This document shows positions 4,590 through 25,853 of a DNA stretch of 64,000 bases, in pieces (position 1 is the first letter of the stretch; the number at the start of each line of letters is the position of its first letter). The notes below the pieces were generated by a model. The model worked only from the letters and a program-made list of their open reading frames with translations. It ran no database searches and was not told the origin of the DNA. Both the position numbers and the translations under genes were made by a program. This DNA comes from Magnetococcales bacterium DCbin4 (GTDB lineage: Bacteria > Pseudomonadota > Magnetococcia > Magnetococcales > UBA8363): positions 14,575 through 78,574 of the forward strand of contig PEAN01000012.1 of the NCBI GenBank assembly GCA_002753735.1, read 5' to 3'.

Positions 4590-5324
4590 GTCCTGTGATA
4601 CCGCCTCCAGCGGTTTGCATCTTGACGTATGGGGATTTCGGAGCGGAACTTCAAGACAAAGATGTCAGGACGCTGCGTTCATGGTGGGAATGACAGGGAT
4701 GTCGTTCAGGGGAAACGCAGAGCAGTCGATTCTGGCAGCAGAACGAAGGATGGATTTGTCGAAGGGTGAGGTATGCCTGTTCAGGGAGCCTGTCGGTTCG
4801 ACCGTTCGGCCGAACAGTCATGATGTTTCCAGTATGCATGGCATTTCTCCCGTAAGGGTCATTCTGAATGAATGCCACAGTCCCATGGCAAATTCAATGA
4901 AATTGGAACTCCCGGTTCAGGATCGTGGCCCAAATCGATGATGCGCACACTGTTGGAAGAAAGAGGGTCATGATCACCCCTTACCGAGGTAAGGGGAACG
5001 ATTCGGGGGAACTCAAGAGGTTACATGACGCAACCATAGAGGAATATATTTTTTGATTTTTTGTTGAAGACAAAATAGTTTTCATTAATGACTTTGAGTG
5101 TCATTCTCAAGAGCTTCGGGTTAAGATGGTTCCGATCACGCTTTGGACAATGGTTCGCGATGCTGGAGTGGCCGTTACGGCATGACCCTCAGGGACAACC
5201 GGGGCATCTTCCCTATCTGATGATCAGAGGCTGGACACTCGGGCGGTTGACATTGGCTATCGGCACGGCCGATGACGAGAGATTCCAAGACAATAAATAA
5301 ATTAATGTTTATGGATAGCGATGG

Positions 5325-5750
5325 TTGATTTCACGTTACATTGAGTCGGAGTATGTCCCATGCAATGGATTCATGATAGCTGCTTCTGGTGAAACCGAGG
5401 AGATGAACCGTCGCCTGGCGGAATCTTCCGATGGAATCAGCGAGGTGAACCGTAGCGTGCAGGAGATCACCTTCGGTATTGGTGAGGTCAATCGGAGCGT
5501 TGGTACGGCGACCCGGGAAGTTCATAACATGGATGGTCATGTGGTGGCGGCATCTAAAACCACAGAGGAATCTGCGCGCAATGTATTGGAGATCAGTAAA
5601 GCGGCAACCCTGGTCGCGAAACACATGAGTGGCGTGAACCAAACCGCGCAACAGATGGGAGAAATGGGAATAACGGTGAAAAACCGTGCCGATGACATGG
5701 CATCCATTGCCCGCGCACTCAACGAGGATTTGGCCCGATTCAAAGTCTGA
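5325..5750 (+). pseudogene. C-terminal remnant of a methyl-accepting chemotaxis protein signalling domain
   Basis: The translation (..EMNRRLAESSDGISEVNRSVQEITFGIGEVNRSVGTATREVHNMDG..VNQTAQQMGEMGITVKNRADDMASIARALNEDLARFKV) looks like the heptad-rich C-terminal arm of MCPs. No TM, HAMP or hairpin-tip sequence is encoded in any frame of 4590-5324. The ORF opens on TTG and the first ATG is at 5373. It ends 12 nt before attL. Confidence 0.5.
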
Positions 5751-5761
5751 CGACAGATGAT

Positions 5762-5813
5762 TGGCGTCCCCGGCGCGATTTGAACGCACGGCCTACGGAT
5801 TAGGAAACCGTTG
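5762..5813. repeat. attL: displaced copy of the 3' 52 nt of tRNA-Arg (partial, not a functional tRNA)
   Basis: tggcgtccccggcgcgatttgaacgcacggcctacggattaggaa(a)ccgttg matches 17274-17325 except for one base (a vs t at repeat position 46). Sequence diverges immediately after. Confidence 0.9.
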
Positions 5814-5820
5814 ATGGAGG

Positions 5821-5854
5821 CCAATAAAGGCCAACAAAGGCCATAAACAAAAGG
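5821..5854 (+). repeat. Tandem ~10-bp repeats CCAA(T/C)AAAGG next to the attL core (candidate arm-type or regulatory protein sites)
   Basis: ccaataaagg ccaacaaagg ccataaacaaaagg lies 7 nt after the att repeat. The same CCAACAAAGG unit recurs at 7585-7620. Confidence 0.6.
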
Positions 5855-6007
5855 AAAATCTGGTTTGAAAGTGGTCGATATTGGTCTATAAGGGCCATTG
5901 CGGTTGACAGTTGGTTGACACAACAAAGTCTTGAATGTTTTTTCCTCGGTGCCAGAATTTGAGAATTTTCTTCTCCTGGACGTATCAAAAATGGTACATT
6001 ACGCTTT

Positions 6008-6355
6008 ATGTTACTGATTCGATTTCCTGTTCATTTTTTTAAAAGCGGCTCTGGTTCAGAACCGGTTCGTGACTGGTTGAAAAGTCTGGATCCCCAAGAC
6101 AGGAAAATAATCGGTGAGGATATCAAAACGGTTCAAGTCGGTTGGCCTGTGGGCATGCCGTTGGTGCGAAAGTTGAAACCTGATCTCTGGGAAGTTCGCT
6201 CCAGGTTACAGGGAAGGATTGCACGGGTTCTTTTTACATTTGAAGATGGGAAAATCGTTTTGGTCCATGGTTTCATAAAAAAAACCCAGAATATACCACT
6301 TCAAGATTTGTTTATTGCCGAAAGTCGGATTTCTGAAATAAGGGGACGAAAATGA
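6008..6355 (+). CDS. Type II toxin, RelE/HigB superfamily (phage Gp49-like)
   Basis: 115 aa. FFKSGSGSEPVRDWLKSLDPQDRKIIGEDIKTVQVGWPVGMPLVRKL..LWEVR..GRIARVLFTF..GKIVLVHGFIKKTQ is the typical Gp49/HigB-like pattern. It has a 4-nt ATGA overlap with the downstream HTH gene. Confidence 0.7.
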   Translation: MLLIRFPVHFFKSGSGSEPVRDWLKSLDPQDRKIIGEDIKTVQVGWPVGMPLVRKLKPDLWEVRSRLQGRIARVLFTFEDGKIVLVHGFIKKTQNIPLQDLFIAESRISEIRGRK

Positions 6356-6639
6356 ATGGTTCTTACCTTGGAAGTGATTTTGATGATTTTTTGAAGGAAG
6401 AGGGAATCTTGGCCGAAGTTGAAGCAACGGCCATTAAAAGAGTTTTTGCGTTAAAGCTGAAAAAAATGATGGAAGATAAGAACGTTTCCAAGACTGAATT
6501 GGCTCGGCGAATGAAAACAAGTCGTGCCTCAGTAAATCGGCTATTGGATCCTGAAAATCGTTCTATTACGCTCCAGACTATGGAAGGTGTGGCTCTTGTC
6601 ATGAATGCACGTTTGAAAATTGACTTGGTTCAGGGCTAA
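6352..6639 (+). CDS. XRE-family HTH antitoxin (HigA-like)
   Basis: 95 aa. The HTH is KNVSKTELARRMKTSRASVNRLLDPEN. It is translationally coupled to the upstream toxin, in the toxin-first order typical of HigBA. Confidence 0.7.
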   Translation: MNGSYLGSDFDDFLKEEGILAEVEATAIKRVFALKLKKMMEDKNVSKTELARRMKTSRASVNRLLDPENRSITLQTMEGVALVMNARLKIDLVQG

Positions 6640-6660
6640 GTGAGAATTGTTTAACAAAGA

Positions 6661-7149
6661 TCATGAAAGCAAATCATCTCTGATTTTATATTCGTTTGGA
6701 ATGGCTTCGATGTTCCATCGGACAATCCTGATTCCTGCAATGAAAAAAATCAAATCCCTCTTCTTGTCTTTTTTTTTGTCATGGCTTCCGTCGTCCAGTT
6801 CGATGGCTGAAATAATGTTGAATTCATTGTCACAAACAAGGAAGTCCACCATTTTTTGTCTGAACGTCTCTTCCATGGTGATATCCTTTTTTGGGTTTCC
6901 GCTATTTGCATAAAGGAATCTTCCCAAGGATACCTGGGAAAGAATGATGTGGTCTGGAAAGACATTTATGAGTCGGCGATATAAAATCTGTTCCGGTTTC
7001 GTAAGGGGTTGGGTCCAGTTGATTTCGGTTACATCGAAATTTGCGTGTCGGCGTATTTTTATCACCTTTGCAACTATTGGTTCGAGAATAAAAGCCCATG
7101 CAGTAATACTTGTAGCTAAATTATAGATATTCATGGCGTTTAATTCCAT
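6661..7149 (-). CDS. DUF2726-like (restriction-endonuclease-fold) protein with an N-terminal hydrophobic helix
   Basis: 162 aa. LTKPEQILYRRLINVFPDHIILSQVSLGRFL ... VDFLVCDNEFNIISAIELDDGSHD..KKRDLIFFIAGIRIVRW matches the DUF2726 pattern as I recall it. The N-terminus ITAWAFILEPIVAKVI is hydrophobic. Confidence 0.55.
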   Translation of the reverse strand: MELNAMNIYNLATSITAWAFILEPIVAKVIKIRRHANFDVTEINWTQPLTKPEQILYRRLINVFPDHIILSQVSLGRFLYANSGNPKKDITMEETFRQKMVDFLVCDNEFNIISAIELDDGSHDKKKDKKRDLIFFIAGIRIVRWNIEAIPNEYKIRDDLLS

Positions 7150-7244
7150 TCTACGTATCCTTATAATTTTGCGACAGTTTCATAAACAAAAATCATCATT
7201 GCGGGCAAAATTTTTTCCTACCCATCTTTTCCAAACTCGTCCTG

Positions 7245-7529
7245 CTATCCGGTATCCGATCCTGCTTTTTTGGAGTCCCTGCGCATTCTCTCAATCTCAG
7301 GGCTGATGTGTCCGTGTTCCTCGTCGGTCAGGCCTGTGACCAACCAATAGGCAAATTGGGGCCAATGTTTGCCAATGGCCGTGATAAGATCTTCTGTTGC
7401 TCTTTGGCCACCTACTTCAACTTTTTCAACCATGCTCTTTTTAACACCACAAATTGTGCAAAATTCATGTCTCCCAAAATTTAGGCATTCTCTGATCGCT
7501 CTTATCCGGTTTCCTAATAAATTTTCCAT
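7245..7529 (-). CDS. XRE/CI-type HTH repressor (prophage lysogeny regulator)
   Basis: MENLLGNRIRAIRECLNFGRHEFCTICGVKKSMVEKVEVGGQRATEDLITAI is a classic HTH_3 layout. I prefer ATG at 7529 (cat at 7527-7529). The ORF-track start 7601 would run through the tandem repeats of the switch region. The gene is divergent from the 7628 HTH gene. Confidence 0.65.
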   Translation of the reverse strand: MENLLGNRIRAIRECLNFGRHEFCTICGVKKSMVEKVEVGGQRATEDLITAIGKHWPQFAYWLVTGLTDEEHGHISPEIERMRRDSKKAGSDTG

Positions 7530-7584
7530 CACATATCGAAAATATTTAGACAGTCTGATGATTGATTTGAAACTTGCCGTGAAT

Positions 7585-7620
7585 CCAACAAAGACCAACA
7601 AAGGCCAACAAAGGCCAACG
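7585..7620 (+). promoter_or_regulatory. Switch region: 3.5 tandem copies of CCAACAAAG(A/G) between the divergent repressor and HTH genes (candidate operators)
   Basis: ccaacaaaga ccaacaaagg ccaacaaagg ccaacg lies inside the 98-bp divergent intergenic region 7530-7627. Confidence 0.6.
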
Positions 7621-7627
7621 ACACGCT

Positions 7628-7831
7628 ATGTCATCAGTCTCCGTTCGTCAAGCTTCGATGGGTCCATACATGACTCAAGAGCGTTTTGCAGAGGTGACAG
7701 GGGTGTCGCTTGATGTTGTTCGAGGTTGGGTGAAGAAAGGGTATCTCCCTATTTTTGATCTGGGAAAATATCGGTTGATCAACGTTGCACTGCTTACCAA
7801 AGAGGCTTTGGAACAGGAATACAAAGTCTAG
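7628..7831 (+). CDS. Small HTH DNA-binding protein (Cro/excisionase/AlpA-like)
   Basis: 67 aa. MTQERFAEVTGVSLDVVRGWVKKGYLP is an excisionase/MerR-type HTH. It is the first gene of the rightward phage operon. Confidence 0.55.
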   Translation: MSSVSVRQASMGPYMTQERFAEVTGVSLDVVRGWVKKGYLPIFDLGKYRLINVALLTKEALEQEYKV

Positions 7832-7848
7832 AACCTGAAAAATGAGGT

Positions 7849-8163
7849 TTGGAAGTGGTGTCGGGTTTGTGTTCAGTTGAAGGGGTAGGAAATGTGGTAA
7901 CTAGTGACCAGGAAAATGGTCTTGTTGATAAGGTATCCAAACAACAGCGTTACCGTGAAAAGCAGGGAAAAGAAATGAAACAAAAAGCCCTTTATCTATC
8001 CAAGCGGGCTTGTGAAGTTCTTGATCTATTTGCCGGTGTTGACGGTATGAATCAATCGCAGATTGCTTCTTTGATTATTGAGGCTGCTGGGGATGTTTTG
8101 GAACATGGTAATCCCGTTATTTGGAGTGGTGTCATCAAACAATTGCGGGATCGTTTGGTTTAG
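7849..8163 (+). CDS. Hypothetical phage protein, possible ribbon-helix-helix domain
   Basis: The ORF opens on TTG. An internal ATG at 7975 follows a purine-rich stretch. MKQKALYLSKRACEVLDLFAGVDGMNQSQIASLIIEAA resembles the RHH/CopG layout. Confidence 0.35.
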   Translation: MEVVSGLCSVEGVGNVVTSDQENGLVDKVSKQQRYREKQGKEMKQKALYLSKRACEVLDLFAGVDGMNQSQIASLIIEAAGDVLEHGNPVIWSGVIKQLRDRLV

Positions 8164-8225
8164 ACAATTCCTCTGGATAGACTGCCCAGGGGATGAAATG
8201 AAATGCAGTCAAATGGAGATAAGAC

Positions 8226-8543
8226 ATGAAGATGAGTTTGAACATTGTATCGGTCGAAAAGTTTGAGTTCAAAGGTGAGGATGGCCGGGAGGTGAAGATG
8301 GGTCGTGTCAGTGCGCTTTCTGATTTTGAAAAGACCGATTCAAGGGTTGGTTGTCCTGTTGTCAATTTCAGCATGGATATCGGTTTGTTTGAAACGTTTG
8401 CGACTTTGGGCAAATTCCCTGCGATGTATGATGTTGACGTTGAGTTGCGGGCGGGGGGGCGGGGGAAAGCTTCTTTGTTTGTTCTCGGTGTCGAGCCGGT
8501 GAAGCCTGTTTCTGAAGTTGGTTCAAAAACCAAGAGCGTTTGA
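8226..8543 (+). CDS. Hypothetical phage protein at the position of the inovirus ssDNA-binding protein (g5p/RstB analogue)
   Basis: 105 aa, beta-rich by eye, located just upstream of the coat module. The call rests on position only, with no motif recognised. Confidence 0.3.
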   Translation: MKMSLNIVSVEKFEFKGEDGREVKMGRVSALSDFEKTDSRVGCPVVNFSMDIGLFETFATLGKFPAMYDVDVELRAGGRGKASLFVLGVEPVKPVSEVGSKTKSV

Positions 8544-8560
8544 AGGCTGGGGATCATCGG

Positions 8561-8797
8561 ATGATTTGGCGGTTAATTTGTACGGGTGAAGGAACTCCAT
8601 CACCGATCACAAACGGCGGAAAAGTGCAGGCCTGCGTCGATGGCACCATGCCAATTTGGCAGCCTGAGCAAGGGTTGGATATTTTATCTTGGGATCAAGA
8701 TGCTATTTCAATTGTAATGCTTTCCACCCTGATGTTCTACGTCGCAGGGCTTGGACTTGGTGCAATATTGAGGTTGTTGGGAAGGTTTGGAAGGTAA
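8561..8797 (+). CDS. Small phage protein with a C-terminal TM helix (minor virion/assembly protein candidate)
   Basis: The ORF-track start 8540 is TTG and the first ATG is at 8561. The C-terminus is hydrophobic then basic: ISIVMLSTLMFYVAGLGLGAILRLLGRFGR. Confidence 0.35.
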   Translation: MIWRLICTGEGTPSPITNGGKVQACVDGTMPIWQPEQGLDILSWDQDAISIVMLSTLMFYVAGLGLGAILRLLGRFGR

Positions 8798-8848
8798 GTC
8801 ACAGGCAACGTTGCCAATCAATAATGGTTTTTTTAAGGAGATGGATTC

Positions 8849-9079
8849 ATGAAGAGTTTTCGGGAGTTTTTGCAAAAGGGTGCTGCACTTGGTTCCGGAT
8901 TGGCCGTTGGAGTCGCCACAAGTCCCGCCTTTGCGGCGCTTGACGTGTCGGGTGTGCAAACGGCATTGGACAACAATCTGAGTTCCTATGAAACCGTTGC
9001 CGTGGCCATCATCGGGTTTGTGTTGGGCGTGGCCGTCATCTACGGGATCCTCAGTTTGATCAAGGGCCGTGCACGGTGA
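8849..9079 (+). CDS. Inovirus major coat protein (g8p-like)
   Basis: 76 aa. Signal peptide MKSFREFLQKGAALGSGLAVGVATSPAFA, then a mature ~47 aa with an acidic N-terminus (LDVSG..D..E), a TM core VAVAIIGFVLGVAVIYGILSLI and a basic tail KGRAR. A strong terminator follows. Confidence 0.8.
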   Translation: MKSFREFLQKGAALGSGLAVGVATSPAFAALDVSGVQTALDNNLSSYETVAVAIIGFVLGVAVIYGILSLIKGRAR

Positions 9080-9170
9080 TGCAATGCCTGAGTTGATTTT
9101 GGGGGGACTGTGGGTTGCTTCGTTGTTGGTCGGAATTCATCATGGGCTGACCATGTTGTGAGGAGAAGAA

Positions 9171-9195
9171 GGGGTGCGATGCGCCCCTTTTTTTT
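9171..9195 (+). terminator. Intrinsic terminator after the major coat gene
   Basis: ggggtgc gat gcgcccc forms a 7-bp stem (one G-U pair) with a 3-nt loop, followed by T8. Confidence 0.75.
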
Positions 9196-9204
9196 GTGAA
9201 AGAG

Positions 9205-10680
9205 ATGAAAAAGATTTCAATAATATTGATTATTGTGTTGATTTTTTTGTCGGTAAATAGGCCTAGGCAGGCTGATGCTATTGCTCCCATAGCATGGGGT
9301 ATGTCTATAGCACTTTGGGCTGTTGGGTTGGGTTTGTTGTGGTATGATTCTTTTGGACGTCAGAGTGATTTTACCTCTAAATCTCAACCGGTTACCAAAG
9401 AACAAGCTTCTGGGGCTGGAAGTCCTCCAAAAGTTCAACCAATTTTTAAATTTTTATCATCAGGTTCTCCATATTATTATGAAGGGGATTTTTCTGGCGC
9501 ATTAGATAAGATTATGCAGTATTCAAAAGAGACTGGTTCAAAATGTCAAGATGCATTTTATAAAGCCAGTGAGTTACCTCCTGTTCCAACATCTGGTACA
9601 GGAATAATTTATGTCAAACTTTATACTAATCAATGGCCTTGTACTATTCCAGGTTCTACTGGTTTTGCGCAGTATTTATCTCCGACTATTGGTTATAATA
9701 CTCCAACAACTCCCAGGTGTCCGACAGGACTTTCTGTTCAACCTGATGGTAAATGTGGTGATAGTTCCATGGCTGATGGTAAGCCTGGGATTGGTAGTCA
9801 ACCTGATGGGACGTTTGTTGATCTCATAGATCCTGATGGTATTGGAAGTGATGTATCGTTATCGGATGATAAGAAAAGCGTCAATGTTCCGAGTGTTGAT
9901 AATCCGGATTTAGGGATAACTGGCACGGCACAGTTATCAAAAACAGGTGCAGAAAATATGAACACGAAGATTGATGAAAAATATTCATCAATTGTTCACA
10001 AAGAAGATGGAACCACGGCAGAAGCGCAAGTGACTTTATCCAGGGAAGTTGCTCCGGATGGGTCTGTTGTGAATTCTAGTGAATCTGTTCAGTATGTTGA
10101 TGGTTCAACTCCTCAGGCGGGAGATAGGTTGACTGATTCGTCTTGGGTTGGTTCGGATGGTTCTATTGTTCTTACGGATCCGGTTCCAGGTGGATTGAAT
10201 GACACTTCCGGGGGTTCTGGTTCTGGGGGTGGTGATGGAACGGGTGGAACCGGTGGAACGGGTGGAACCGGTGATTTGTCAGGGCTGCAATCGACTTTGG
10301 ATGGGATAAAAAATGGTCAATGTGGGGGTGTTGGACAACCGGAGTGCAAGGTGGATCTCGGTGATGTCTCTGGGGTTTCAGTTCTTGATAAGCGGTCGTC
10401 GGTCAATTCGGATGCGCTTAATCCGGATGGTCAGGTAACAAAGCAGGATGAATTAAAAGCAGAAATAGATGAATTGAAAGAACAGTTGAAGGTTGGCTTT
10501 GAGAGATTGGTGAATTTGAATCTGAGTGGATCAGAGTATTTACCATCATGGAGTTTTTCAACACTTGGTTCGACGTTTACAATTGATTTGGCCAGATATG
10601 CAGAATTGCTTTCTCCGATTGCTGATTTAATTTTGTTTTTTACATCGGTAACCTGCCTGTTTATTATCATTGGAGATTAA
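9205..10680 (+). CDS. Minor coat/adsorption protein (g3p-like) with a Gly-rich linker
   Basis: ATG at 9205 (the track start 9196 is GTG). Signal peptide MKKISIILIIVLIFLSVNRPRQADA. Central linker SGGSGSGGGDGTGGTGGTGGTGD. C-terminal hydrophobic anchor ILFFTSVTCLFIIIG. It occupies the g3p position. Confidence 0.65.
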   Translation: MKKISIILIIVLIFLSVNRPRQADAIAPIAWGMSIALWAVGLGLLWYDSFGRQSDFTSKSQPVTKEQASGAGSPPKVQPIFKFLSSGSPYYYEGDFSGALDKIMQYSKETGSKCQDAFYKASELPPVPTSGTGIIYVKLYTNQWPCTIPGSTGFAQYLSPTIGYNTPTTPRCPTGLSVQPDGKCGDSSMADGKPGIGSQPDGTFVDLIDPDGIGSDVSLSDDKKSVNVPSVDNPDLGITGTAQLSKTGAENMNTKIDEKYSSIVHKEDGTTAEAQVTLSREVAPDGSVVNSSESVQYVDGSTPQAGDRLTDSSWVGSDGSIVLTDPVPGGLNDTSGGSGSGGGDGTGGTGGTGGTGDLSGLQSTLDGIKNGQCGGVGQPECKVDLGDVSGVSVLDKRSSVNSDALNPDGQVTKQDELKAEIDELKEQLKVGFERLVNLNLSGSEYLPSWSFSTLGSTFTIDLARYAELLSPIADLILFFTSVTCLFIIIGD

Positions 10681-10683
10681 GGA

Positions 10684-11046
10684 ATGGATTTCAAAACTGC
10701 AATATCAAATAGTTTGCAGTCGATATATAATTTTTTCGAGTCAATCTATTTGTTTCTGTTTGATGGGGGGATTTCTGAATGGGTTGGAAAGGTAATAAGC
10801 TATTTCTATGAAGTATTAATGGTTTTATATTATAGCTTGATCAAAATAGTTTTGACTGGATTGGTTGCTTTTATCGATGGTTTGTATGAATCGATGAACA
10901 TTGCTGGTGCGGTGGAAGGGTACTGGCAGAATATTGATGAAGGATATCGTGGGATCATGGTGTTTTTTCATGTACCTTTAATTTTGTCGATGTTGTTGTC
11001 TGCGTTTGTCCTCAGAAAGATTTTGAAATATACGGAAATATTTTAA
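10684..11046 (+). CDS. Small multi-TM virion/assembly protein (g6p-like)
   Basis: 120 aa with several hydrophobic segments. It sits between the g3p-like and Zot genes, with a TAATG 1-nt overlap with zot. Confidence 0.5.
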   Translation: MDFKTAISNSLQSIYNFFESIYLFLFDGGISEWVGKVISYFYEVLMVLYYSLIKIVLTGLVAFIDGLYESMNIAGAVEGYWQNIDEGYRGIMVFFHVPLILSMLLSAFVLRKILKYTEIF

Positions 11047-12245
11047 TGCCTATTACAATTTATTACGGTCCTCCAGGAGCCTACAAAACGTCATCGGCGC
11101 TTTTGGATTTCTTTGCTGATGCTGCCTTTTCAGGACGGACTGTGATGACAAATATTCGTGGTTTGGATGATCGTGCACGAGTGGTTTCGGTGCTGGAAAA
11201 AAGATTTGAGGCTAAAGGGTTTGGTCCATGGCGTACCCAAGGGAAAAAGGTTCCTGATCATTGGCAGTTGATTTACAGGCAATCGGAAGATTCAAATGGG
11301 ATTAAAGAATGGCAAACGTTTTTTCATGACTTACCGCGGGGCGCATTGATCATTATTGATGAAGCACAACGCATTTATCGGAAAGAACTGACCGCAAAAC
11401 AGCTTTCTGAGTTCGATTATCCCGGTGGTCCGGATCGAGCATCGGAAATGGATGTGCCTGCTGATGTAAGAACAGCTTTTGAAATGCACCGGCACTGGAA
11501 TCTTGACTTTGTACTTACGTGTCAAAATTTGTCCCAATTGCATGAGTTGATCAAAAATACTTCCGAAATGGCTCATAGTCATCAGAATCTTGCATCTGTA
11601 TTGCTATTCATGAAGGGGCATTACGTGGTCCGGACTCATCCGGCGGATACGTATCTTGCGGAAAAAAATATTGTTCTTCAGCGGAATCGAGTGATTCAAA
11701 AATGGATTTTCGATTTATACAAATCTACTGCAACGGGGATTGTCAGTGACACCAACACCGGAACAAGCATATGGCGAAATCCAGCTATCGCGATCCCAGT
11801 TGTTGGGCTTGTTCTTTGCGTCATATACCTTTTATTTTTCGCGAAAATTCCCTTTCTTGGCAAAGATCATACTGCCGGTGTCAAGGATACTGATAAAGCC
11901 CTTGGCAATAGTGGCTCTGTACCTGTATCGAAAGATCGTAATGCGGTTGATAAGGGTAACGTTCAGAATACTGATGGTCCTGGTGTTGGTTTATCTTTCT
12001 TTGAAACTGGTCATGTGAAGAATAAGATTTTCCTGGTCGGGCTGATTGGCGGAAAAGCAAGATTCGAGGTTGAAACTGATGATGAGATGGTAGGTTTAGT
12101 CTATGATCAGGATGTTATAGAAAGGATTGGATACAAGGTTGAGATATTCACAAATTGTCTGGCCAAGCTTACAAAAGGTGGGGTTGATGAATACGTTCGT
12201 TGTAAGGGAATTGAAGGTGAAAAGAAAAATCGCGGTATTCTTTAA
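11046..12245 (+). CDS. zot: Zot-family assembly ATPase (g1p-like)
   Basis: MPITIYYGPPGAYKTSSAL..GRTVMTNIRGL.., Walker B LIIIDEAQ, and AFEMHRHWNLDFVLTCQNLSQLH parallel the CTXphi Zot motifs as I remember them (GAPGSYKTSGAL, ITNVRGL, FIDECG, AFDMHRHHGWDI). There is a central TM, AIAIPVVGLVLCVIYLLFF. Confidence 0.85.
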   Translation: MPITIYYGPPGAYKTSSALLDFFADAAFSGRTVMTNIRGLDDRARVVSVLEKRFEAKGFGPWRTQGKKVPDHWQLIYRQSEDSNGIKEWQTFFHDLPRGALIIIDEAQRIYRKELTAKQLSEFDYPGGPDRASEMDVPADVRTAFEMHRHWNLDFVLTCQNLSQLHELIKNTSEMAHSHQNLASVLLFMKGHYVVRTHPADTYLAEKNIVLQRNRVIQKWIFDLYKSTATGIVSDTNTGTSIWRNPAIAIPVVGLVLCVIYLLFFAKIPFLGKDHTAGVKDTDKALGNSGSVPVSKDRNAVDKGNVQNTDGPGVGLSFFETGHVKNKIFLVGLIGGKARFEVETDDEMVGLVYDQDVIERIGYKVEIFTNCLAKLTKGGVDEYVRCKGIEGEKKNRGIL

Positions 12246-13827
12246 TGTTTTTATTTTATTTCTTTGTTTCAATGGGGTGGCATTTCCAGAAGGACGGTTC
12301 ACAACCGTGAATTTTCATAATATTCCGTTGGCCGAAGTTGCAGAGTATGTTTCTCAAACTGCCAAAGTTGGAATCATTTTTTCTGGTATTGAAGATCGAA
12401 TAACCTGGAATCAGACTTTTCTGATCGATAATTTGTTTTTGGTTTTCTCGTCGGTTTTGAATGCTCAGGGGTACTACTTTGCTTCTGAGGGGTATGGATT
12501 GTGGTCAATTCGAAAACATGATCAAGGGACGGACATAAACTCAGGAGCACATCTTGTCATGACCTTGAGAAATGTATCAGCAAATGATTTGAAAGAATCG
12601 GTTAATTTGTTATTTGGGAATAAAATAAGAATTGCAGGTGGAGAGAAAGAAGGACGGGTCATTATCATAACAGGGCAACTTTCATTATTGCAAAAAGCAT
12701 TTTCAATCATTCAACAATTTGATGATTCATCAGAGCCGGTGAAGGATCATGAAATTGTGGATATATCTCACGAATTGACCAGGAAGATTGAACCACGTTT
12801 AAGGTCCGTACTTGGAGAAACCGTTGGCATAACTTCCAATCCTTGGTCGAAACAAATATTGATCAAAGGTACTCCATCACAAAGGCTTTTGGCTCGAGCG
12901 GTGGTTGAGATGATGGATAAACCACAGGCAGATTTAAGGCGCGTTGTCCGGTTGCACAGGTTGACGGCTTCGGATGTGGTGACAGTTATAAAGGAGCTTG
13001 CCGAAGCGGTTGTAGTGCATGCCGTTGGTTCTCAGGAGGTTCTGTTGACTGGACCATCCAGCGAAGTGCTGAATCTTGTCGACGTCGTGCGGGATCTTGA
13101 TGGAGGCCGTGAACAGGTGCGTGTTGATGCAATCATTGCGGTTTTGTCCGATGATGGACTTGAACAACTGGGAACCAAGTTGGAAATGACAGATTCCGGA
13201 CTCGTGGAAAATTTCGTTGCTCAAGGACTGGCAGTTGATGGTCCAAATCTGTTGATGGATTTGGTAACAGGCCGTCTGAAAGTTCACATCAACGCTTCCA
13301 AAGGGGAATCAACGGGACGTGTCTTGTCATCCCCATCTTTGACGGTTCTTGACGGTCAAACTGCATCCATATTGGTTGGTCAAAACATACCTCTCATTGC
13401 CAAGCATCAATCAGGAACGTCAGGTGACAAAGAATCACATGATGGAGTCGAGGTAAATCGTGTTGATGTCGGTTTGTCCTTGCAGATCACACCAGGTATT
13501 GAAGGGGACTTCGTGAGGTTGAAGATTTTGCAAGAGGTTTCCGGGATATCCCAACAAAACGTTGGCGCAGTAGACATTTCAACCAACGTACGAAGGATTG
13601 AAACATCGGTTTTGGTACCAAACGGTCAGACCTTATACCTGGGGGGGGTACGTGAAGATGAGACGGGAGCAACAGATTGGAAAGTTCCGATCCTGGGAGA
13701 TTTGCCAATTGTTGGGATGGTTTTTCAATCGAGTTCTCAATCAAGGAGGGGATCAAATCTTGTAATTTCAATTAAACCTTCTGTGATTTCAAGGGATGGT
13801 GATGGAGTACGAGAGTTAAGTTTATAA
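12187..13827 (+). CDS. Phage secretin (g4p-like; GspD/PulD-family outer-membrane channel)
   Basis: C-terminal secretin signature: TLYLGGVREDE..WKVPILGDLPIVGMVFQSSSQSRRGSNLVISIKPSVI. I prefer the start at 12187 (MNTFVVRELKVKRKIAVFFNVFILFLCFNGVAFP, signal-like) over the ORF-track 12127. It overlaps the zot 3' end. Confidence 0.8.
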   Translation: MNTFVVRELKVKRKIAVFFNVFILFLCFNGVAFPEGRFTTVNFHNIPLAEVAEYVSQTAKVGIIFSGIEDRITWNQTFLIDNLFLVFSSVLNAQGYYFASEGYGLWSIRKHDQGTDINSGAHLVMTLRNVSANDLKESVNLLFGNKIRIAGGEKEGRVIIITGQLSLLQKAFSIIQQFDDSSEPVKDHEIVDISHELTRKIEPRLRSVLGETVGITSNPWSKQILIKGTPSQRLLARAVVEMMDKPQADLRRVVRLHRLTASDVVTVIKELAEAVVVHAVGSQEVLLTGPSSEVLNLVDVVRDLDGGREQVRVDAIIAVLSDDGLEQLGTKLEMTDSGLVENFVAQGLAVDGPNLLMDLVTGRLKVHINASKGESTGRVLSSPSLTVLDGQTASILVGQNIPLIAKHQSGTSGDKESHDGVEVNRVDVGLSLQITPGIEGDFVRLKILQEVSGISQQNVGAVDISTNVRRIETSVLVPNGQTLYLGGVREDETGATDWKVPILGDLPIVGMVFQSSSQSRRGSNLVISIKPSVISRDGDGVRELSL

Positions 13828-13937
13828 TTTGGTTTTGCTATTGACTTTGCTTTTGACTGTTGTTTTTTTAAATATATAAAAATAAAAATAAGCTGGTTTT
13901 GACTTTTAAAATGTCTTAAGTGATAAGAGAAATAGCC

Positions 13938-13981
13938 TGTTGGAAACTTGTTGGAAACTTGTTGGAAAATTGTTGGAAAAA
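13938..13981 (+). repeat. Left iteron set: 4 x 11 bp TGTTGGAAA(C/A)T
   Basis: tgttggaaact tgttggaaact tgttggaaaat tgttggaaaaa, head-to-tail, in the non-coding region after the secretin gene. Confidence 0.85.
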
Positions 13982-13987
13982 CGGTTT

Positions 13988-14067
13988 TTTTTTCCTTTTT
14001 GAACGATCCCTTCTCCGAATCATTACAATCCAGTGTGCTTGTCCGGGATCGTTCAAAAAGGAAAAAA
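13988..14067. promoter_or_regulatory. Perfect 23-bp-stem hairpin (34-nt loop): candidate replication origin or packaging signal
   Basis: Left arm ttttttcctttttgaacgatccc (13988-14010) is the exact reverse complement of the right arm gggatcgttcaaaaaggaaaaaa (14045-14067). Confidence 0.8.
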
Positions 14068-14072
14068 TCGTT

Positions 14073-14116
14073 TTTTCAATAATTTTTCAATAGGTTTTCA
14101 ATAGGTTTTCAATAGG
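14073..14116 (+). repeat. Right iteron set: 4 x 11 bp TTTTCAATA(A/G)(T/G)
   Basis: ttttcaataat ttttcaatagg ttttcaatagg ttttcaatagg. The reverse complement (CCTATTGAAAA) loosely mirrors the TTGGAAA core of the left set. Confidence 0.85.
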
Positions 14117-14142
14117 CGGGCGATACAGAACAAAATTAAGTT

Positions 14143-14406
14143 ATGAACAATGATTTGGTTGAAAAGAAATGGTGCGCTATGTGTGATTTTGATGTGTATG
14201 GTCTGGAGGGTCTTGCCTTGGAATTTATGATTGAACAGAGGAATAAACATTCCTATGAGTTGGAAGATTATTTTGAAGGTATTGCTGCTTTTTTTGAGGG
14301 GGAGGATAGGTTTCCGGATGGGGTATTTGAGGAGTCGGATTCTCAGATTGCATTTATGAATGGTTGGGGAATGGCAGAAAAATTTTGTTTGAGAGGAAAA
14401 ATATAA
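14143..14406 (+). CDS. Hypothetical small acidic phage protein
   Basis: 87-aa ORF with an ATG start, immediately after the iteron region. No recognisable motif. Confidence 0.4.
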   Translation: MNNDLVEKKWCAMCDFDVYGLEGLALEFMIEQRNKHSYELEDYFEGIAAFFEGEDRFPDGVFEESDSQIAFMNGWGMAEKFCLRGKI

Positions 14407-14463
14407 AAAGTTCTAGAAAATGTGTCAATTGGTTACATCAAAACATCAACAGATAGGTGATCT

Positions 14464-14847
14464 ATGTCTTTTTTTGTTGAACAAAATATTAGGTGGGTTG
14501 CGAATGAATGTTCAAATGGATTCGTTGAAATAACGCCATATTTCTTTAGATCCTGTTCTGCGGTTGCATATTTTGTGAATTACACTGATGCAGATCTTTT
14601 TCGCAGGTCAAAAAATATGGAAGATTTTTTACGGTCCATGGAGGAGGTATTGGGGAAGGGCATGCCTACCTGTCCTGAAGCGCAATTGCAGGTTTGGAAT
14701 GAACTTCGTTCCTTGGTTGTTTCTTGTCTCTCTTCTTCGCAAGGTGATGCCCCTGAGCGAGGAGCGCCAGCGACGAGCGATGAGGGGCATCACCTTGTTA
14801 AGAGCTTCCCAAGGAGGTTATCCCCAATGGGCAAGACGTCCCTGTAG
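14464..14847 (+). CDS. Hypothetical phage protein (3' third doubtful)
   Basis: 127-aa ORF. Its last ~35 codons run through a GC-rich 15-bp-stem hairpin (14740-14797) that looks like a DNA structural element rather than coding sequence. Confidence 0.3.
   Translation: MSFFVEQNIRWVANECSNGFVEITPYFFRSCSAVAYFVNYTDADLFRRSKNMEDFLRSMEEVLGKGMPTCPEAQLQVWNELRSLVVSCLSSSQGDAPERGAPATSDEGHHLVKSFPRRLSPMGKTSL
14740..14797. other. GC-rich perfect 15-bp-stem hairpin upstream of rep (candidate nick site, second origin or other cis element)
   Basis: caaggtgatgcccct (14740-14754) is the exact reverse complement of aggggcatcaccttg (14783-14797). The 28-nt loop contains gagcga twice. A second 7-bp hairpin aagacgt/acgtctt lies at 14833-14855. 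Confidence 0.7.
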
Positions 14848-14912
14848 CACGTCTTATAAACTAGGTCGGACAACTGAGCGTAAGTGGTCATTAGTGGCCA
14901 TTGCTAAATTGT

Positions 14913-16208
14913 ATGGAGTTCGGAAAAATGCCTGAAAAGTGGAAATTTTGCAATAGATACGATCCCTATACCATGATCACCGGTGACTCTGACGAATTTC
15001 CGACTGATCCAAAGGGAAGTTTGTTCGAATCGGGTACTGGTCTCCACGATCTGAGCCATATCCATGTGTTGTCATCAACGGTTGATACGGTCAAACAGAT
15101 TTATCATGGTGTAATCAAGTTGAAATGGTTAGAAAAAATTGAGCGCTTTCTTGATTCTAACGAAGAATTCCTATCTGATGGTCCTTATGGTCCCTGGCAC
15201 ATTTCGAGAATCGGTAAAAGTTCAGGTTACCAATTGAAACTTCAAAATAACGAGTTGGGCTTTGTCATCTTGTTAAAGACCGTCTATGCCAAGCATGATA
15301 AACCAGCAAGTCATCTCAAAATTGAAGTTTCTCCACACAGGATTCGTTCTTCTGGGTCTTGTGGGGCTTTGCAGGGGAATTTGGACAGCATTGCCATTTG
15401 GCTGTTGGAGGAGGGCTGGAAGTATGTTGGTGTTGCCGTTCACCTTGCTGTTGATGTTCAGGGTTGGAAACCTAAAATGGATTTTATGCAAAAGTTGGTT
15501 ACAAGGACACGGACAACCAAGGATTTTCGTGGTATATCCGATTTTCAGCTTGATAATTTATCCGAAATATCAACAGTATACGATAATGGGCAGTCTTTCC
15601 TGTTTGGTAAAGCGTCTGCTTTGCAAATGGCCGTCTATCGCAAAGATCTTGAAATATCAAAAAGGGATAAAGTTGATTATTTTCATGATGTTTGGAACAA
15701 AGATGGGAAGGATTGGTTTGAGTCAGATAAATGTGTTTGGCGTATTGAGGTGAGGCTTCATCATGGCATTATGCGCGAGATTGGACTGGGGCTTGGAGGC
15801 AAAATTGAGTCCTTCCGGGAGTCTGAAAGTGTGCTGACCGATGTTTGGCGGTATGGGTTGGATCGTAACCGTTTGATGCTAACTGAGCGATATATTGATC
15901 CTTTTTGGCAATTATTGATGCAGGATGTTCAATTCTGCTTGCCACCTAGTGGTGTTGCGGTGCGTCGAGTAAAAAAAAAGGATATGTCCAATGCAGGAAA
16001 AAATGTGGCAATGATGATTGGCAACATTGTTACTCTGGCCGCTCGTCGTCAAATGGATGCTTTTCAAATTGTTCATATGATTCAGGATATGGCTTTGTAC
16101 GAAGATGTTCGGGATTATTTGAAGTCCAAGGGGTATCGTGAAGGTCGGCTTTTTGAGATGGTTGAGAGGGGGTTGAAGATTCGTCGTCTCCTTGGCAAGG
16201 CTGCTTAG
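14913..16208 (+). CDS. Rolling-circle replication initiator (Rep_trans/RstA-like)
   Basis: VGVAVHLAVDVQGW (the hHhAhD metal-binding-type motif) and CVWRIEVRLHH resemble the Rep_trans / phage CRI family. It is placed after the structured intergenic region. The start is uncertain: TTG 14901, ATG 14913, or ATG 14928, the last preceded by GGAG. Confidence 0.6.
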   Translation: MEFGKMPEKWKFCNRYDPYTMITGDSDEFPTDPKGSLFESGTGLHDLSHIHVLSSTVDTVKQIYHGVIKLKWLEKIERFLDSNEEFLSDGPYGPWHISRIGKSSGYQLKLQNNELGFVILLKTVYAKHDKPASHLKIEVSPHRIRSSGSCGALQGNLDSIAIWLLEEGWKYVGVAVHLAVDVQGWKPKMDFMQKLVTRTRTTKDFRGISDFQLDNLSEISTVYDNGQSFLFGKASALQMAVYRKDLEISKRDKVDYFHDVWNKDGKDWFESDKCVWRIEVRLHHGIMREIGLGLGGKIESFRESESVLTDVWRYGLDRNRLMLTERYIDPFWQLLMQDVQFCLPPSGVAVRRVKKKDMSNAGKNVAMMIGNIVTLAARRQMDAFQIVHMIQDMALYEDVRDYLKSKGYREGRLFEMVERGLKIRRLLGKAA

Positions 16209-16209
16209 A

Positions 16210-17235
16210 TTGGCCATCAAGAAACATTCATCCGGTTGGCAGGTGGATATCCAGCCTGGAGGCCGCGGTTGCCGTCGTTATCGGAAGACGTTTTCAACCA
16301 AGGGGGAAGCCCTTCGGTGGGAAATTTTCATGAAGGATCGTCTTCGGATCAATTCGGAATGGTTACCGGCTAAGAAAGATGGGCGGCACATGTCGGAATT
16401 GGTTGATGTTTGGAATAAGCACCATGGGCAACGGCTTCATTTTGATCAGTATAAACGTCTCGTTGCGTTAAGCCAGCGACTTGGGGATCCGGTTGCTGCA
16501 AGTTTCGATGTTCAACATTTTGCTGCTTACCGGGAATTGCGGTTGGCCGATGGGTTGACGCCATCGACCCTCAACCGGGAACATTCCTATTTGCGGGCCA
16601 TGTTTCATGAATTGAAACGGTTGGGACTTTGGTCAGGGGAAAATCCCATGGGAGGACTCCGCCAGTTGAAAGTTCCTGAGCGTGAATTGTCCTACCTCTC
16701 AACTGAGCAAATCCAGAAATTATTGGTGGAAGTGGACAAGAGTGGAAACCCGGATGTGGGCTTGGTCGTTCGGATCTGTTTATCGACCGGTGCTAGATGG
16801 GGTGAGGCAGAGGGGTTGAGGGCCGAACAGGTCCATGAGTGGAGGATTGATTTCTACGGTACCGGGACCAAGAGTGGCAAAAATCGCACTGTTCCTGTTT
16901 CCCATGATCTTGTCCAGCAACTCCGAGGGCGGGGTGTTTCGCATGGCCGGTTGTTCTCCAGTTGTGCTGGGGCTTACCGATCTGCGGTCAAGCGTATGGG
17001 ATTGGATCTTCCCGATGGCCAGTTAACCCACGTCTTGAGACATACTTTTGCATCTCATTTCATGATGAATGGTGGGAATATTCTCGTTCTGCAAAAAATT
17101 CTTGGTCATCAAAGTTTGGCTATGACCATGCGATATTCCCACCTTTCTCCCGATCACTTGAAAGAATCGATCAGGTTTAACCCTCTTGCAAATTCCGTTG
17201 ACACTTCGTTGACAGGAACGTCGGCGGTTGGGTGA
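16210..17235 (+). CDS. int: Tyrosine recombinase (phage integrase)
   Basis: C-terminal catalytic region: GARWGEAEGL (R), HVLRHTFASHFMMNGGNILVLQKILGHQSLAMTMRYSHL (H-x-x-R ... H ... Y). The N-terminus (L)AIKKHSSGWQVDIQPGGRG.RRYRKTFSTKGEAL is typical of this integrase family. A TTG at 16210 lies directly after the rep stop (TAG 16206-16208). The ORF-track start 16192 is also TTG. Confidence 0.85.
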   Translation: MAIKKHSSGWQVDIQPGGRGCRRYRKTFSTKGEALRWEIFMKDRLRINSEWLPAKKDGRHMSELVDVWNKHHGQRLHFDQYKRLVALSQRLGDPVAASFDVQHFAAYRELRLADGLTPSTLNREHSYLRAMFHELKRLGLWSGENPMGGLRQLKVPERELSYLSTEQIQKLLVEVDKSGNPDVGLVVRICLSTGARWGEAEGLRAEQVHEWRIDFYGTGTKSGKNRTVPVSHDLVQQLRGRGVSHGRLFSSCAGAYRSAVKRMGLDLPDGQLTHVLRHTFASHFMMNGGNILVLQKILGHQSLAMTMRYSHLSPDHLKESIRFNPLANSVDTSLTGTSAVG

Positions 17236-17273
17236 TTTTTGGCGGTCTTGTTTCTGTAAGTCTTTGTAAAAAA

Positions 17274-17350
17274 TGGCGTCCCCGGCGCGATTTGAACGCA
17301 CGGCCTACGGATTAGGAATCCGTTGCTCTATCCGGCTGAGCTACGGGGAC
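17274..17350 (-). tRNA. tRNA-Arg (anticodon CCT), CCA-encoded; attR core
   Basis: Reverse complement: GTCCCCG TA GCTC AGCCGGATA GAGC A ACGGA TTCCTAA TCCGT AGGCC GTGCG TTCAAAT CGCGC CGGGGAC G CCA. It folds as a complete 77-nt cloverleaf with a 7-nt anticodon loop, anticodon CCT. Confidence 0.9.
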
Positions 17351-17455: not shown

Positions 17456-18577
17456 TCACAGTGGAAGTCGAATCTCGATGGTTGTTTGATCGGCGGTGCC
17501 GGCATCCAGATGAATGCTCCCCCCCATCGTTCTGGCACTGAGGTCGGCAGAATAGGTTCCCAATCCAGAACCATATTTTTTTCCGGCGGTGACATGCTTG
17601 TTGAAAAATTGATCACGTATCTGTTCCGGGACTTCCCCCCTGTTGACAACCCGGATCAATGCCTGCTCTTTCCGCCTCAGGTCAATTTTCACTGATTCCT
17701 GGGCGGGTGATGCCTCAATGGCGTTCTTGATGACATTCGACAAGACGGCATAACACAAAAGCTCCTCCCCGGAAACCATGAAGGTATCTTCTGCTCGGTG
17801 ATCCCGACCGTCAACCGAAAGGTGTAACTTCACCTTCTTTCTCAAAAACAACGAGTTCAACTCTTTTGCTACATGATGGATGATCTTGACGACATCCACA
17901 GGTACAGGATCCAACACATATAATCCGCGCTCCATCTTGTAGAGGTCATGCGAACGATTGATCATCAGCAACATACGCAATCCCGAAGCGGATAGTTCCT
18001 GCAACATTTGCGCCTGCTCCGCCGGGGGTTTCAAGTCATTGATCAGTATCTCCGGCATGCCGATGATGAAATTCAAAGGCCCTTTCAAATCGTGGCGGAG
18101 AATTTGTTCCACATCCTCCCGTAACTTGGCAGCTATTACCAACTCATCGTTCTGTTTTTGAATCTCCAGGTTTTGCCGCGCAATGGTCTCCCGCGATTCC
18201 TTCAAAGCCAGATGCGTTCTGACCCGTGCCCGGACAATGGCCGCCTTGACCGGTTTGTTGATGAAATCAACCGCACCCACGGAAAAACCTTTAACCTCAT
18301 CTTCAATTTCTTTTTTGGCTGTAATGAATATAACAGGAATGTTTCGTGTTTGTTCATTTTCTCCAAGTTTTCTACAGCCCTCATAACCATCCATTCCAGG
18401 CATCATGATATCCAATAAGATCAGGTCCGGCCCATCTGCGGCATGACGCAACATTTCATGGGCATTGCGTGCAAATACCAGAAAATATTCGTCACGCAGG
18501 ATTTCCCGCAGCAATTTCAAATTGACCGGCTCGTCGTCTGCTATGAGGATCTTGTATTTTTTTTTCTTGGTTTCCAT
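17456..18577 (-). CDS. Response-regulator/histidine-kinase fusion (REC-HisKA-HATPase)
   Basis: N-terminal REC: YKILIADDEPVNLKLL..LILLDIMMPGMDGYE..FITAK. Then RHDLKGPLNFIIGM (H-box-like) and a C-terminal ATPase: GSGLGTYSADL. ATG at 18577; the ORF-track 18586 is TTG. Confidence 0.85.
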   Translation of the reverse strand: METKKKKYKILIADDEPVNLKLLREILRDEYFLVFARNAHEMLRHAADGPDLILLDIMMPGMDGYEGCRKLGENEQTRNIPVIFITAKKEIEDEVKGFSVGAVDFINKPVKAAIVRARVRTHLALKESRETIARQNLEIQKQNDELVIAAKLREDVEQILRHDLKGPLNFIIGMPEILINDLKPPAEQAQMLQELSASGLRMLLMINRSHDLYKMERGLYVLDPVPVDVVKIIHHVAKELNSLFLRKKVKLHLSVDGRDHRAEDTFMVSGEELLCYAVLSNVIKNAIEASPAQESVKIDLRRKEQALIRVVNRGEVPEQIRDQFFNKHVTAGKKYGSGLGTYSADLSARTMGGSIHLDAGTADQTTIEIRLPL

Positions 18578-18578
18578 G

Positions 18579-25621: not shown

Positions 25622-25853
25622 GAATATAAAAAGCAAATCCCAGGTGATGATGAAGGATTTTCCGTTACTGTCATTGAGTGGAGAATTTCATCAAAATGAT
25701 CTGTTTGTGGTTTTGCGAGACTGGATCAATCGAATCAGACGGTTTACCTTGTCTTGAATCGGTTGGGAAAAAAGGGTTACCGGGTGAATCTGACCCGTCG
25801 GTGACCGACTGCGTGATTCATCCTGATGATTCTATAGCGACAGGGGCCATGCC

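Follow-up and report, generated by a model that had tools for sequence, protein, structure and literature searches.

A candidate temperate filamentous phage with Pf-type replication genes and its own secretin at a tRNA-Arg gene of a Magnetococcales bacterium

Among the known systems closest to the element analysed here are the filamentous phages of the Pf type. Their replication initiator, PA0727, has been demonstrated experimentally, and in Pf4 the SIYNK module of this protein contains an essential tyrosine (PMC4863604); the XisF4 protein of Pf4 binds attL/attR, the promoter of its own gene and that of PA0727 (PMC7379572). A survey by Roux et al. 2019 identified, in genomes, 582 inovirus prophages with attachment (att) sites in tRNA genes or beside an integrase gene (PMC6813254), and a filamentous prophage of Cupriavidus STM 6070 carries a tyrosine recombinase and a pIV secretin and occupies a tRNA-Met site (PMC10011098). 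In the present study we analysed a 64,000-nt stretch of DNA (referred to as the window) from a Magnetococcales metagenome-assembled genome (MAG), Magnetococcales bacterium DCbin4 (contig PEAN01000012.1, positions 14,575 to 78,574). The stretch also corresponds to contig JADFWW010000010.1 of GCA_015234015.1, a Magnetococcales MAG. Between window positions 5762 and 17325 it contains an element that is very probably a temperate inovirus, integrated by means of its own integrase at a tRNA-Arg(CCT) gene, with lysogeny, replication and export as proposed below. The Magnetococcales are magnetotactic bacteria; the papers searched contained no report of a filamentous phage for this group.

Genes were assigned by Pfam and PHROGs family searches of the open reading frames (ORFs), and these upheld the gene order given in the original prediction, which can now be read as a toxin and an antitoxin gene, a DUF2726 gene (minus strand), a helix-turn-helix (HTH) repressor candidate (minus strand), an HTH_17/Cox-like gene, small ORFs, the coat gene, the gene of a Gly-linker protein, a DUF2523/Ace-like gene, the Zot and Secretin genes, a spacer of ~1.1 kb with a large hairpin, and finally the rep and integrase genes. 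The DUF2726 gene and the repressor candidate are the only genes of the block carried by the minus strand. Of the features by which inoviruses are recognised, a Zot-type ATPase, a g8p-type coat protein and a small genome (11,460 bp, where about 5-15 kb is expected) that is coded mostly on one strand and includes a rolling-circle initiator are present. The claim of an integrated inovirus with its own Zot, secretin, rolling-circle initiator and tyrosine integrase stands. None of the core genes is interrupted, and the two att copies are likewise intact.

The expected direct repeat was found at 5762-5813 and 17274-17325; its two copies are identical at 51 of 52 nt, with the mismatch at 5807/17319, and bracket a block of 11,460 bp. 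The right copy (attR, 17274-17325) is part of an intact 77-nt tRNA-Arg(CCT) gene (17274-17350, minus strand) whose 3' part is supplied by the phage. This tRNA, already recognised in the original prediction, was called by both ARAGORN, which reports no other tRNA in the window, and Rfam (66.5 bits). In the left copy (attL, 5762-5813, no strand assigned) positions 5762-5806 are the displaced, host-derived 3' part of the tRNA gene, followed by the phage-derived A-CCGTTG. The repeat starts at the encoded CCA end of the tRNA and extends as far as the anticodon stem, up to tRNA position 26. Its mismatch corresponds to canonical tRNA position 31, so that the 31/39 pair is A-U in the intact tRNA and U.U in the left copy. 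The tRNA-Arg(CCT) genes of three other Magnetococcales MAGs have T, the attR base, at this position, and the phage arm of a related prophage (L097, contig JADGCQ010000029) keeps A-CCGTTG, i.e. the attL base. The odd base of attL is therefore phage DNA, which places the crossover 3' of tRNA position 31, in or adjoining the anticodon loop.

The tyrosine integrase gene (16210-17235, plus strand) ends 38 nt from the tRNA, in agreement with the predicted adjacency, and its product matched Int_N (4e-30) and, as anticipated, Phage_integrase PF00589 (1e-19). The motifs ARWGE, HVLRH, GHQS and MRYSH (residues 201, 280, 305 and 313) are present, with the R..HxxR..H..Y set intact, and the protein is 44-48% identical to the integrases of Pf4 and of Synechococcus phage Yong-M4-251. 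Duplication of the tRNA 3' part with int beside the intact copy is the arrangement by which tRNA-using tyrosine integrases are recognised. We propose that this integrase inserted the 11.46-kb phage at the anticodon-loop region of tRNA-Arg(CCT), where the phage copy of the 3' part would have restored the gene. The predicted attP reads ...GTAAAAAA-TGGCGTCC...GGATTAGGAA-A-CCGTTG-ATGGAGGCC.

The genome is a MAG, and two phage-only contigs of 11.3 and 10.7 kb in other assemblies (JGI 3300003895 and ERR711863), both 100% identical to the element, stop inside the att core, the shorter one before the diagnostic position. These facts would fit an assembly or binning chimera, in which an episomal phage had been joined to the host contig at the shared tRNA-like repeat. 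We consider such an artefact highly improbable: a single 78.9-kb contig contains the two junctions and has host genes to the left and right of them, the relatives have the same Int-tRNA junction, and attL and attR differ exactly at the base that separates host tRNA from phage arm in independent genomes, which would not be expected from a collapse artefact. The block was also correctly described as richer in AT than its surroundings (43.0% GC versus 52.9% and 53.9% in the two flanks); every 11.46-kb segment of the right flank has at least 51.8% GC. The GC skew (G>C) amounts to +0.20 inside the block versus +0.02 to +0.06 outside. Both composition and skew are compatible with a foreign element transcribed from one strand.

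The rolling-circle replication initiator (Rep, 426 aa; 14928-16208, plus strand) matched phrog_1159 (1e-100) and no Pfam family. Membership in Rep_trans (PF02486), which had been proposed as a check, was not borne out, as this profile did not match the Rep ORF even at E<=10. At the same threshold it also misses PA0727 and the cyanophage Rep; it does match the Rep of VGJphi (3e-16). Over about 90% of its length, this Rep shares 33% identity with PA0727/Pf1 ORF430 and with the initiator found in two Synechococcus inoviruses. Its AVYRK motif aligns with SIYNK of PA0727, the Tyr and Lys being invariant in 41 homologues, and the Tyr of AVYRK is the candidate catalytic residue. An AlphaFold model based on these homologues (predicted local distance difference test score, pLDDT, 89; predicted template modelling score, pTM, 0.78) was compared with known structures using Foldseek. 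The top matches were entries of the staphylococcal Rep_trans protein RepDE (4cwc/4cwe; E 4e-8 and 5e-7, probability 1.00), followed by TATA-binding proteins (TBP), and the template modelling (TM) scores were modest (0.29/0.42). Searching PDB sequences with profiles of the Rep family yielded only noise, and hhalign of the Rep profile with VGJphi Rep aligned the Tyr modules without reaching significance. Given the homology with PA0727, the conserved Tyr/Lys and the RepDE-like model, we accept Rep as a rolling-circle initiator with a predicted Rep_trans (TBP-like horseshoe) fold, although it falls outside the formal Pfam family.

The structural and export genes are all located on the plus strand. 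The major coat protein (8849-9079) is g8p-like, with a signal peptide and with a hydrophobic core between an acidic N-terminus and a basic C-terminus; it matched phrog_2145 and phrog_18198, as well as Phage_Coat_B (1e-4; 22.8 bits, slightly below the 23.5-bit cutoff). It is preceded by a 78-aa protein with a C-terminal membrane segment (8561-8797), a minor coat candidate, and followed by a 494-aa g3p-like adsorption protein (9196-10680; phrog_815, 1e-10) with a Gly/Ser/Thr linker and a C-terminal anchor. These two proteins are 43% and 33% identical, respectively, to their counterparts in the Magnetococcales contig L006 (JADFZS010000149.1). Next comes a g6p/Ace-like minor coat protein (10684-11046; phrog_306, 1e-8; DUF2523, 1e-4).

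The pI/Zot assembly ATPase (11046-12245; phrog_1041, 1e-62) has the Walker A motif GPPGAYKT, the Walker B motif IIIDE and one membrane segment, and the proposed search with PF05707 gave a clear match (5e-33; 114.6 bits versus a 20.3-bit cutoff). The claimed parallel with the Zot motifs of CTXphi has to be corrected for Walker A, whose sequence is of the Pf type (GxxGxYK[ST]) and not of the CTXphi/Ff type (GxxGxGK[ST]). The variant GxxG[AS]YK[ST] (window 11046-11100), with Tyr replacing the usual Gly, is common to the Zot proteins of the window phage, Pf4, Yong-M4-251 and the Magnetococcales relatives; the Zot proteins of VGJphi and of L024 (UViG_3300007963_003535, an IMG/VR contig) have the canonical GK[ST] Walker A. 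The gene of the pIV-type secretin (12187-13827) overlaps the end of zot by 59 nt. Its product matched Secretin PF00263 (2e-40), as expected, Secretin_N PF03958 (5e-14) and, at profile positions 18-401 of 403, phrog_1012, which represents protein IV of M13 (2e-53). No N0 domain (PF21305) was matched, such as is found in L024 and in GspD proteins, although the PHROG match does span the N-terminal part.

The lysogeny switch was originally thought to be of the CI/Cro type. Our analysis pointed to a switch of the Pf4r/XisF4 (P2 C/Cox) type instead: the protein in the place of 'Cro' belongs to HTH_17, is like an excisionase and shares 37-46% identity with the corresponding proteins of Pf4 and a cyanophage. 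This small XisF4/Cox-like protein (7628-7831, plus strand; HTH_17, 3e-4; Phage_Cox, 7e-3) is 46% identical to 'cox' of Yong-M4-251, 37% to Orf71 of Pf4 and 63% to the homologue in a related Magnetococcales prophage (L092, contig PEAM01000004); it probably acts as excisionase and switch regulator. The divergent Pf4r/P2 C-like repressor candidate (7245-7601, minus strand) has a weak HTH_31 match and an uncertain start, placed by gene callers at 7433 or 7529. It is 53% identical to an HTH_31 protein of L092 and weakly matches the Pf4 repressor region.

Short repeats with the consensus GRCCA accompany these genes. Three GGCCA units with 10-bp spacing lie beside the att core (5819-5843, plus strand), as candidate excisionase/regulator sites in the attP arm. 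Four 10-bp-phased units (a weaker ATCCA, then GACCA, GGCCA and GGCCA; 7583-7620, plus strand) form a candidate operator between the divergent repressor and xis/cox genes, and a GGCCACTAATGACCA motif (14885-14899, minus strand), another candidate regulator site, is found about 30 nt upstream of rep. GRCCA-N5-GRCCA occurs at only three places in the window (5819-5843, 7593-7617 and 14885-14899), a statistic that is circular, because the pattern was defined from these sites. In L092 the pattern is found only upstream of the xis-like gene and of rep, and in L097 it is confined to the arms of attL and to the stretch upstream of the xis-like gene. The simplest reading, suggested by motif placement and by homology with XisF4, is that the Xis homologue uses the GRCCA repeats, which would couple excision with replication. 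Promoter and terminator consensus scans showed no enrichment versus shuffled sequences.

Just after the secretin gene there is a 183-nt imperfect hairpin (13935-14117, plus strand), a candidate packaging signal and/or origin element, in which the inner stem of 23 bp is perfect and each arm contains four repeats phased at 11 nt. The predicted folding energy is -51.7 kcal/mol (z -10.3) for plus-strand DNA versus -38.4 kcal/mol for the minus strand. The 11-nt arm repeats (left TTGTTGGAAAC, right TTTTCAATAGG) pair via systematic G.T wobbles, and the plus strand folds better by about 13 kcal/mol because these pairs turn into A.C on the other strand. Hypothetically, the hairpin, which occupies the position of the Ff packaging signal, could be read in the packaged plus strand.

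Taken as a life cycle, the proposal is as follows. The Pf4r/P2 C-like repressor would probably maintain lysogeny, with a HigB/HigA-like toxin-antitoxin pair to stabilise it. Upon induction, the XisF4/Cox-like protein would bind the 10-bp-phased GRCCA units beside the att core, between the divergent genes in their promoter region, and upstream of rep, and so couple excision with rep expression, by analogy with the experimentally shown Pf4 case. Rep, through the Tyr of AVYRK in its Rep_trans fold, would start rolling-circle replication; the plus strand, marked by the 183-nt hairpin, would then be coated and extruded without lysis via the Pf-type pI (Zot) ATPase, to which the pIV secretin encoded by the phage itself would be coupled.

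Several observations weigh against this proposal. Neither a circular (attP) nor an empty (attB) junction was detected: a degenerate 60-nt pattern covering attL, attR, attP and attB had no match in JGI metagenome contigs, and in GTDB genomes it had three matches, each to the tRNA-Arg(CCT) gene of another Magnetococcales MAG, where neither synteny nor phage genes were seen. With regard to the suggested check for an unoccupied tRNA-Arg in related genomes, these three genes do not represent true empty sites, but they revealed the host version of the mismatch base. A look-up of the left-end toxin gene for further junctions returned the source contig only. Since no attP or attB junction was found, excision is deduced solely from the intact parts. 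The longer of the two phage-only contigs (L002) carries the attR variant and is therefore consistent with the integrated form. No single-stranded DNA-binding (g5p-type) protein was recognised, the small ORFs having no Pfam or PHROGs family match. The protein that binds GRCCA could instead be the repressor or the arm-binding domain of the integrase. The large hairpin is not conserved at its position in L092, L006 or L024, which leaves its role hypothetical, and the activity of a prophage in a MAG host cannot be judged from sequence.

Part of this evidence would also be expected of a prophage that is cryptic or has been domesticated. Its sequence would be intact, but it would have ceased to excise or to produce virions, and the host might keep it for its toxin-antitoxin, DUF2726 or secretin genes. 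In line with this, no circular or empty-site junction appeared in the collections searched, the independent contigs show ends of the integrated form only, and no g5p-like gene was recognised. Yet no recognisable core gene is interrupted, Int, Rep and Zot retain their catalytic motifs, the one difference between the att copies falls where the phage arm would lead one to expect it, and the strong plus-strand G>C skew and the low GC content have not ameliorated toward the host. Moreover, relatives occur at different sites and in different MAGs, which argues for recent mobility. A cryptic state is therefore unlikely, and we regard the prophage as probably functional.

Three of these relatives were found in Magnetococcales. 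L092 has the full architecture of the window phage (Rep 61%, Int 69% and Xis 63% identical), L093 (THC-1_WYH) shares Rep and Int with 94% and 93% identity, respectively, and the left end of L097 shows 92% nucleotide identity. Unlike the window phage, with its tRNA-Arg(CCT), all three sit at tRNA-Thr(UGU) (L092 11297-12444; L093 1-1964; L097 4640-4760 and 6860-6960). In L093, int is followed by a homologous spacer and an intact tRNA-Thr(UGU), while attL of L097 consists of a tRNA-Thr 3' part joined to the same phage arm. The two tRNAs have an identical anticodon stem and share its neighbouring bases, and their differences lie in the anticodon, the T arm and the acceptor arm; the phage arms on either side of the att core are homologous between Arg- and Thr-site phages. 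A shared stem combined with different tRNA targets supports a crossover in the anticodon loop, and the occurrence of such close relatives at different tRNAs points to recent retargeting.

The spacer of 20-25 nt between int and the tRNA of the window phage (TCTGTAAGTCTTTGT..., window 17250-17273) resembles host DNA just downstream of tRNA-Arg(CCT) in MAG HA3dbin1 (L090 5212-5235), and also, on the host side of attL in L097, the host DNA that lies downstream of tRNA-Thr (L097 about 4625-4646). Earlier integrations by phages of this family may have left such stretches as scars. L097 has two attL-like junctions (4647-4700 and 6870-6930, each with a tRNA-Thr 3' part and a phage arm) about 2.2 kb apart, with a Gp49/HTH pair and one of the two DUF8196 genes of the contig between them; the arrangement could be a tandem one, or a second element could have left a remnant here.

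For the export module, the closest relatives were the Magnetococcales contigs L006 and L007 (Zot 53-56%, secretin 50-53% identical). Zot is 31-35% identical to the proteins of a Pf4-type prophage and of Yong-M4-251, while the minor proteins, the coat and g3p have matches in other Magnetococcales contigs only. L006 (1057-2211 and 7347-10125) shares the Zot-secretin module (53%), but differs in its Ff-type Phage_CRI/G2P_X_C Rep and unrelated integrase; a common assembly module beside another Rep and integrase indicates that modules have been exchanged within the host group. The genome of the window phage is a mosaic of a Pf-like lysogeny/replication module and an assembly module common to other Magnetococcales inoviruses. 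Tentatively, and with slightly less than even confidence, we suggest a Magnetococcales-specific inovirus lineage that lacks close IMG/VR relatives, pairs a Pf-type pI with its own secretin and recently switched its chromosomal target.

The remaining genes of the element are accessory or without family assignment. A Gp49/HigB-like toxin gene (6008-6355, plus strand; PF05973, 5e-20) overlaps by 4 nt a downstream HTH_26 antitoxin candidate (6352-6639, plus strand; PF13443, 3e-9); a Gp49/RelE-fold toxin gene overlapping a downstream HTH antitoxin gene is the arrangement typical of a HigB/HigA-like type II toxin-antitoxin pair, to which we assign these genes on their predicted domains. The DUF2726 gene (6661-7149, minus strand; PF10881, 2e-16) recurs as an accessory gene in unrelated inoviruses, namely in Vibrio cyclitrophicus (L008 8132-8773), in an IMG/VR contig (L053 about 1795) and in a Magnetococcales relative (L097 8338-8889), which suggests a phage-linked function. 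PADLOC found no defence system among the accessory genes, only weak HTH and toxin-domain matches. Four further plus-strand ORFs have no family match: a small ORF at 7849-8163; a 105-aa beta-rich protein (8226-8543), a g5p candidate by position only, whose low-confidence structure model (pLDDT 58) gave no fold match; an 87-aa ORF (14143-14406) called in all three assemblies; and a 127-aa ORF (14464-14847) called by only two of three gene callers.

The prophage is flanked by very large hybrid histidine-kinase/response-regulator genes (window 1-4589 and 17456-25636). On the left, an 1862-aa gene of this type continues past the end of the window, and the genes of the right flank encode 376, 747 and 1605 aa. 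Directly adjoining attL, an ORF of 125-141 aa (window 5373-5750) may be a gene fragment; of a methyl-accepting chemotaxis protein it resembles no more than the signalling part at the C-terminus.

The original prediction held that a self-encoded tyrosine integrase with a tRNA site, a self-encoded secretin and a repressor switch are usually alternatives among filamentous phages. This could not be sustained. Among the 80 best IMG/VR contigs from a scan with the Rep alignment, 72 have a related integrase, 52 an Xis-like gene and at least 18-19 a secretin just upstream of rep. The same layout was seen in L024, which was checked in full by Pfam: an HTH repressor (minus strand), a Gp8 coat, Zot, Secretin, Rep and Int_N/Phage_integrase, then an opposite-strand tRNA-Met right after int. 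As the combination is already present in such catalogues and in one published prophage, that of Cupriavidus, the general picture of inovirus biology is unchanged. Within this IMG/VR sample, the secretin-bearing loci had no match to the window Zot (L024, the one inspected, has an Ff-type Zot), and the loci with a Pf-type Zot had no secretin; the pairing of these two is what is specific to this element. A close relative of the window secretin was not found in IMG/VR. The Vibrio cyclitrophicus/PMBT54 secretin-bearing inoviruses were considered as phages that also carry integrases, and were rejected as such (PMC10534721).

With this element, the Magnetococcales gain a filamentous prophage that is well delimited and apparently intact. 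It indicates that a Pf-type replication/lysogeny module can be combined with a self-sufficient export module (pI + pIV). Several predictions are open to test: a GRCCA operator that the att arm has in common with the switch and with the promoter of rep, a packaging signal in the form of a strand-specific hairpin, and retargeting between tRNA-Arg and tRNA-Thr. If the suggested lineage with its switch of target is real and the phage is active, it would provide a natural minimal example of the retargeting of a tyrosine integrase, in which the overlap and the tRNA 3' part in attP were swapped and the core-binding arms kept. For magnetotactic bacteria, a group that is genetically hard to manipulate, it would then also be a candidate integrating vector.

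Compared with known systems, L024 differs from the window phage in its Ff-type Zot (GKLGAGKT), its Gp8-type coat and a secretin that is only about 30% identical, and the STM 6070 prophage differs in its Ff-type gpII (Phage_CRI) Rep (PMC10011098). The cultured Synechococcus phage Yong-M4-251 (L004), annotated mostly as hypothetical proteins, has a Pf-type Rep, integrase, Cox-like regulator and Zot, and no secretin match. The Pf4/Pf1-type phages (Primolicivirus; Pf4r, XisF4, PA0726, PA0727, PA0728) resemble the element in Rep (33% identity), integrase (44%) and Xis (37%), and the Zot of Pf4 has the same GxxGxYK[ST] Walker A and about 35% identity over the N-terminal 245 residues. They also share the order repressor (minus strand)/xis, structural genes, zot, rep, int and tRNA, and a toxin-antitoxin accessory module. 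At the protein level, identities to Pf-like phages are 30-48%; a megablast comparison of the complete element with 50,697 phage records gave no match, and the nucleotide relatedness expected within the genus Primolicivirus is thus absent. Pf phages differ in host and lack a secretin (Pf4 has no G4P homologue; PMC7549136), whereas the Magnetococcales element has one, together with a structured 1.1-kb spacer between zot and rep. In the passage of PMC10011098 that cites Fiedoruk et al. 2020, the Pf att sites are given as tRNA-Gly, tRNA-Met or tRNA-Sec, in contrast to tRNA-Arg(CCT) here. The Ff phages (M13/f1/fd) do not integrate, use an HUH-type gpII and not a Rep_trans-fold protein, and have no repressor/excisionase switch. 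Together with I2-2, in which a 'morphogenetic signal' is annotated beside gene IV, they resemble the element in the order gIII, gVI, gI, gIV, intergenic hairpin and replication gene, and the PHROG of M13 pIV matches the secretin over its full length. The segment from g3 through g6, g1, g4 and the intergenic hairpin to rep follows the Ff order, and the outer parts, repressor/xis and rep-int-tRNA, follow that of Pf.

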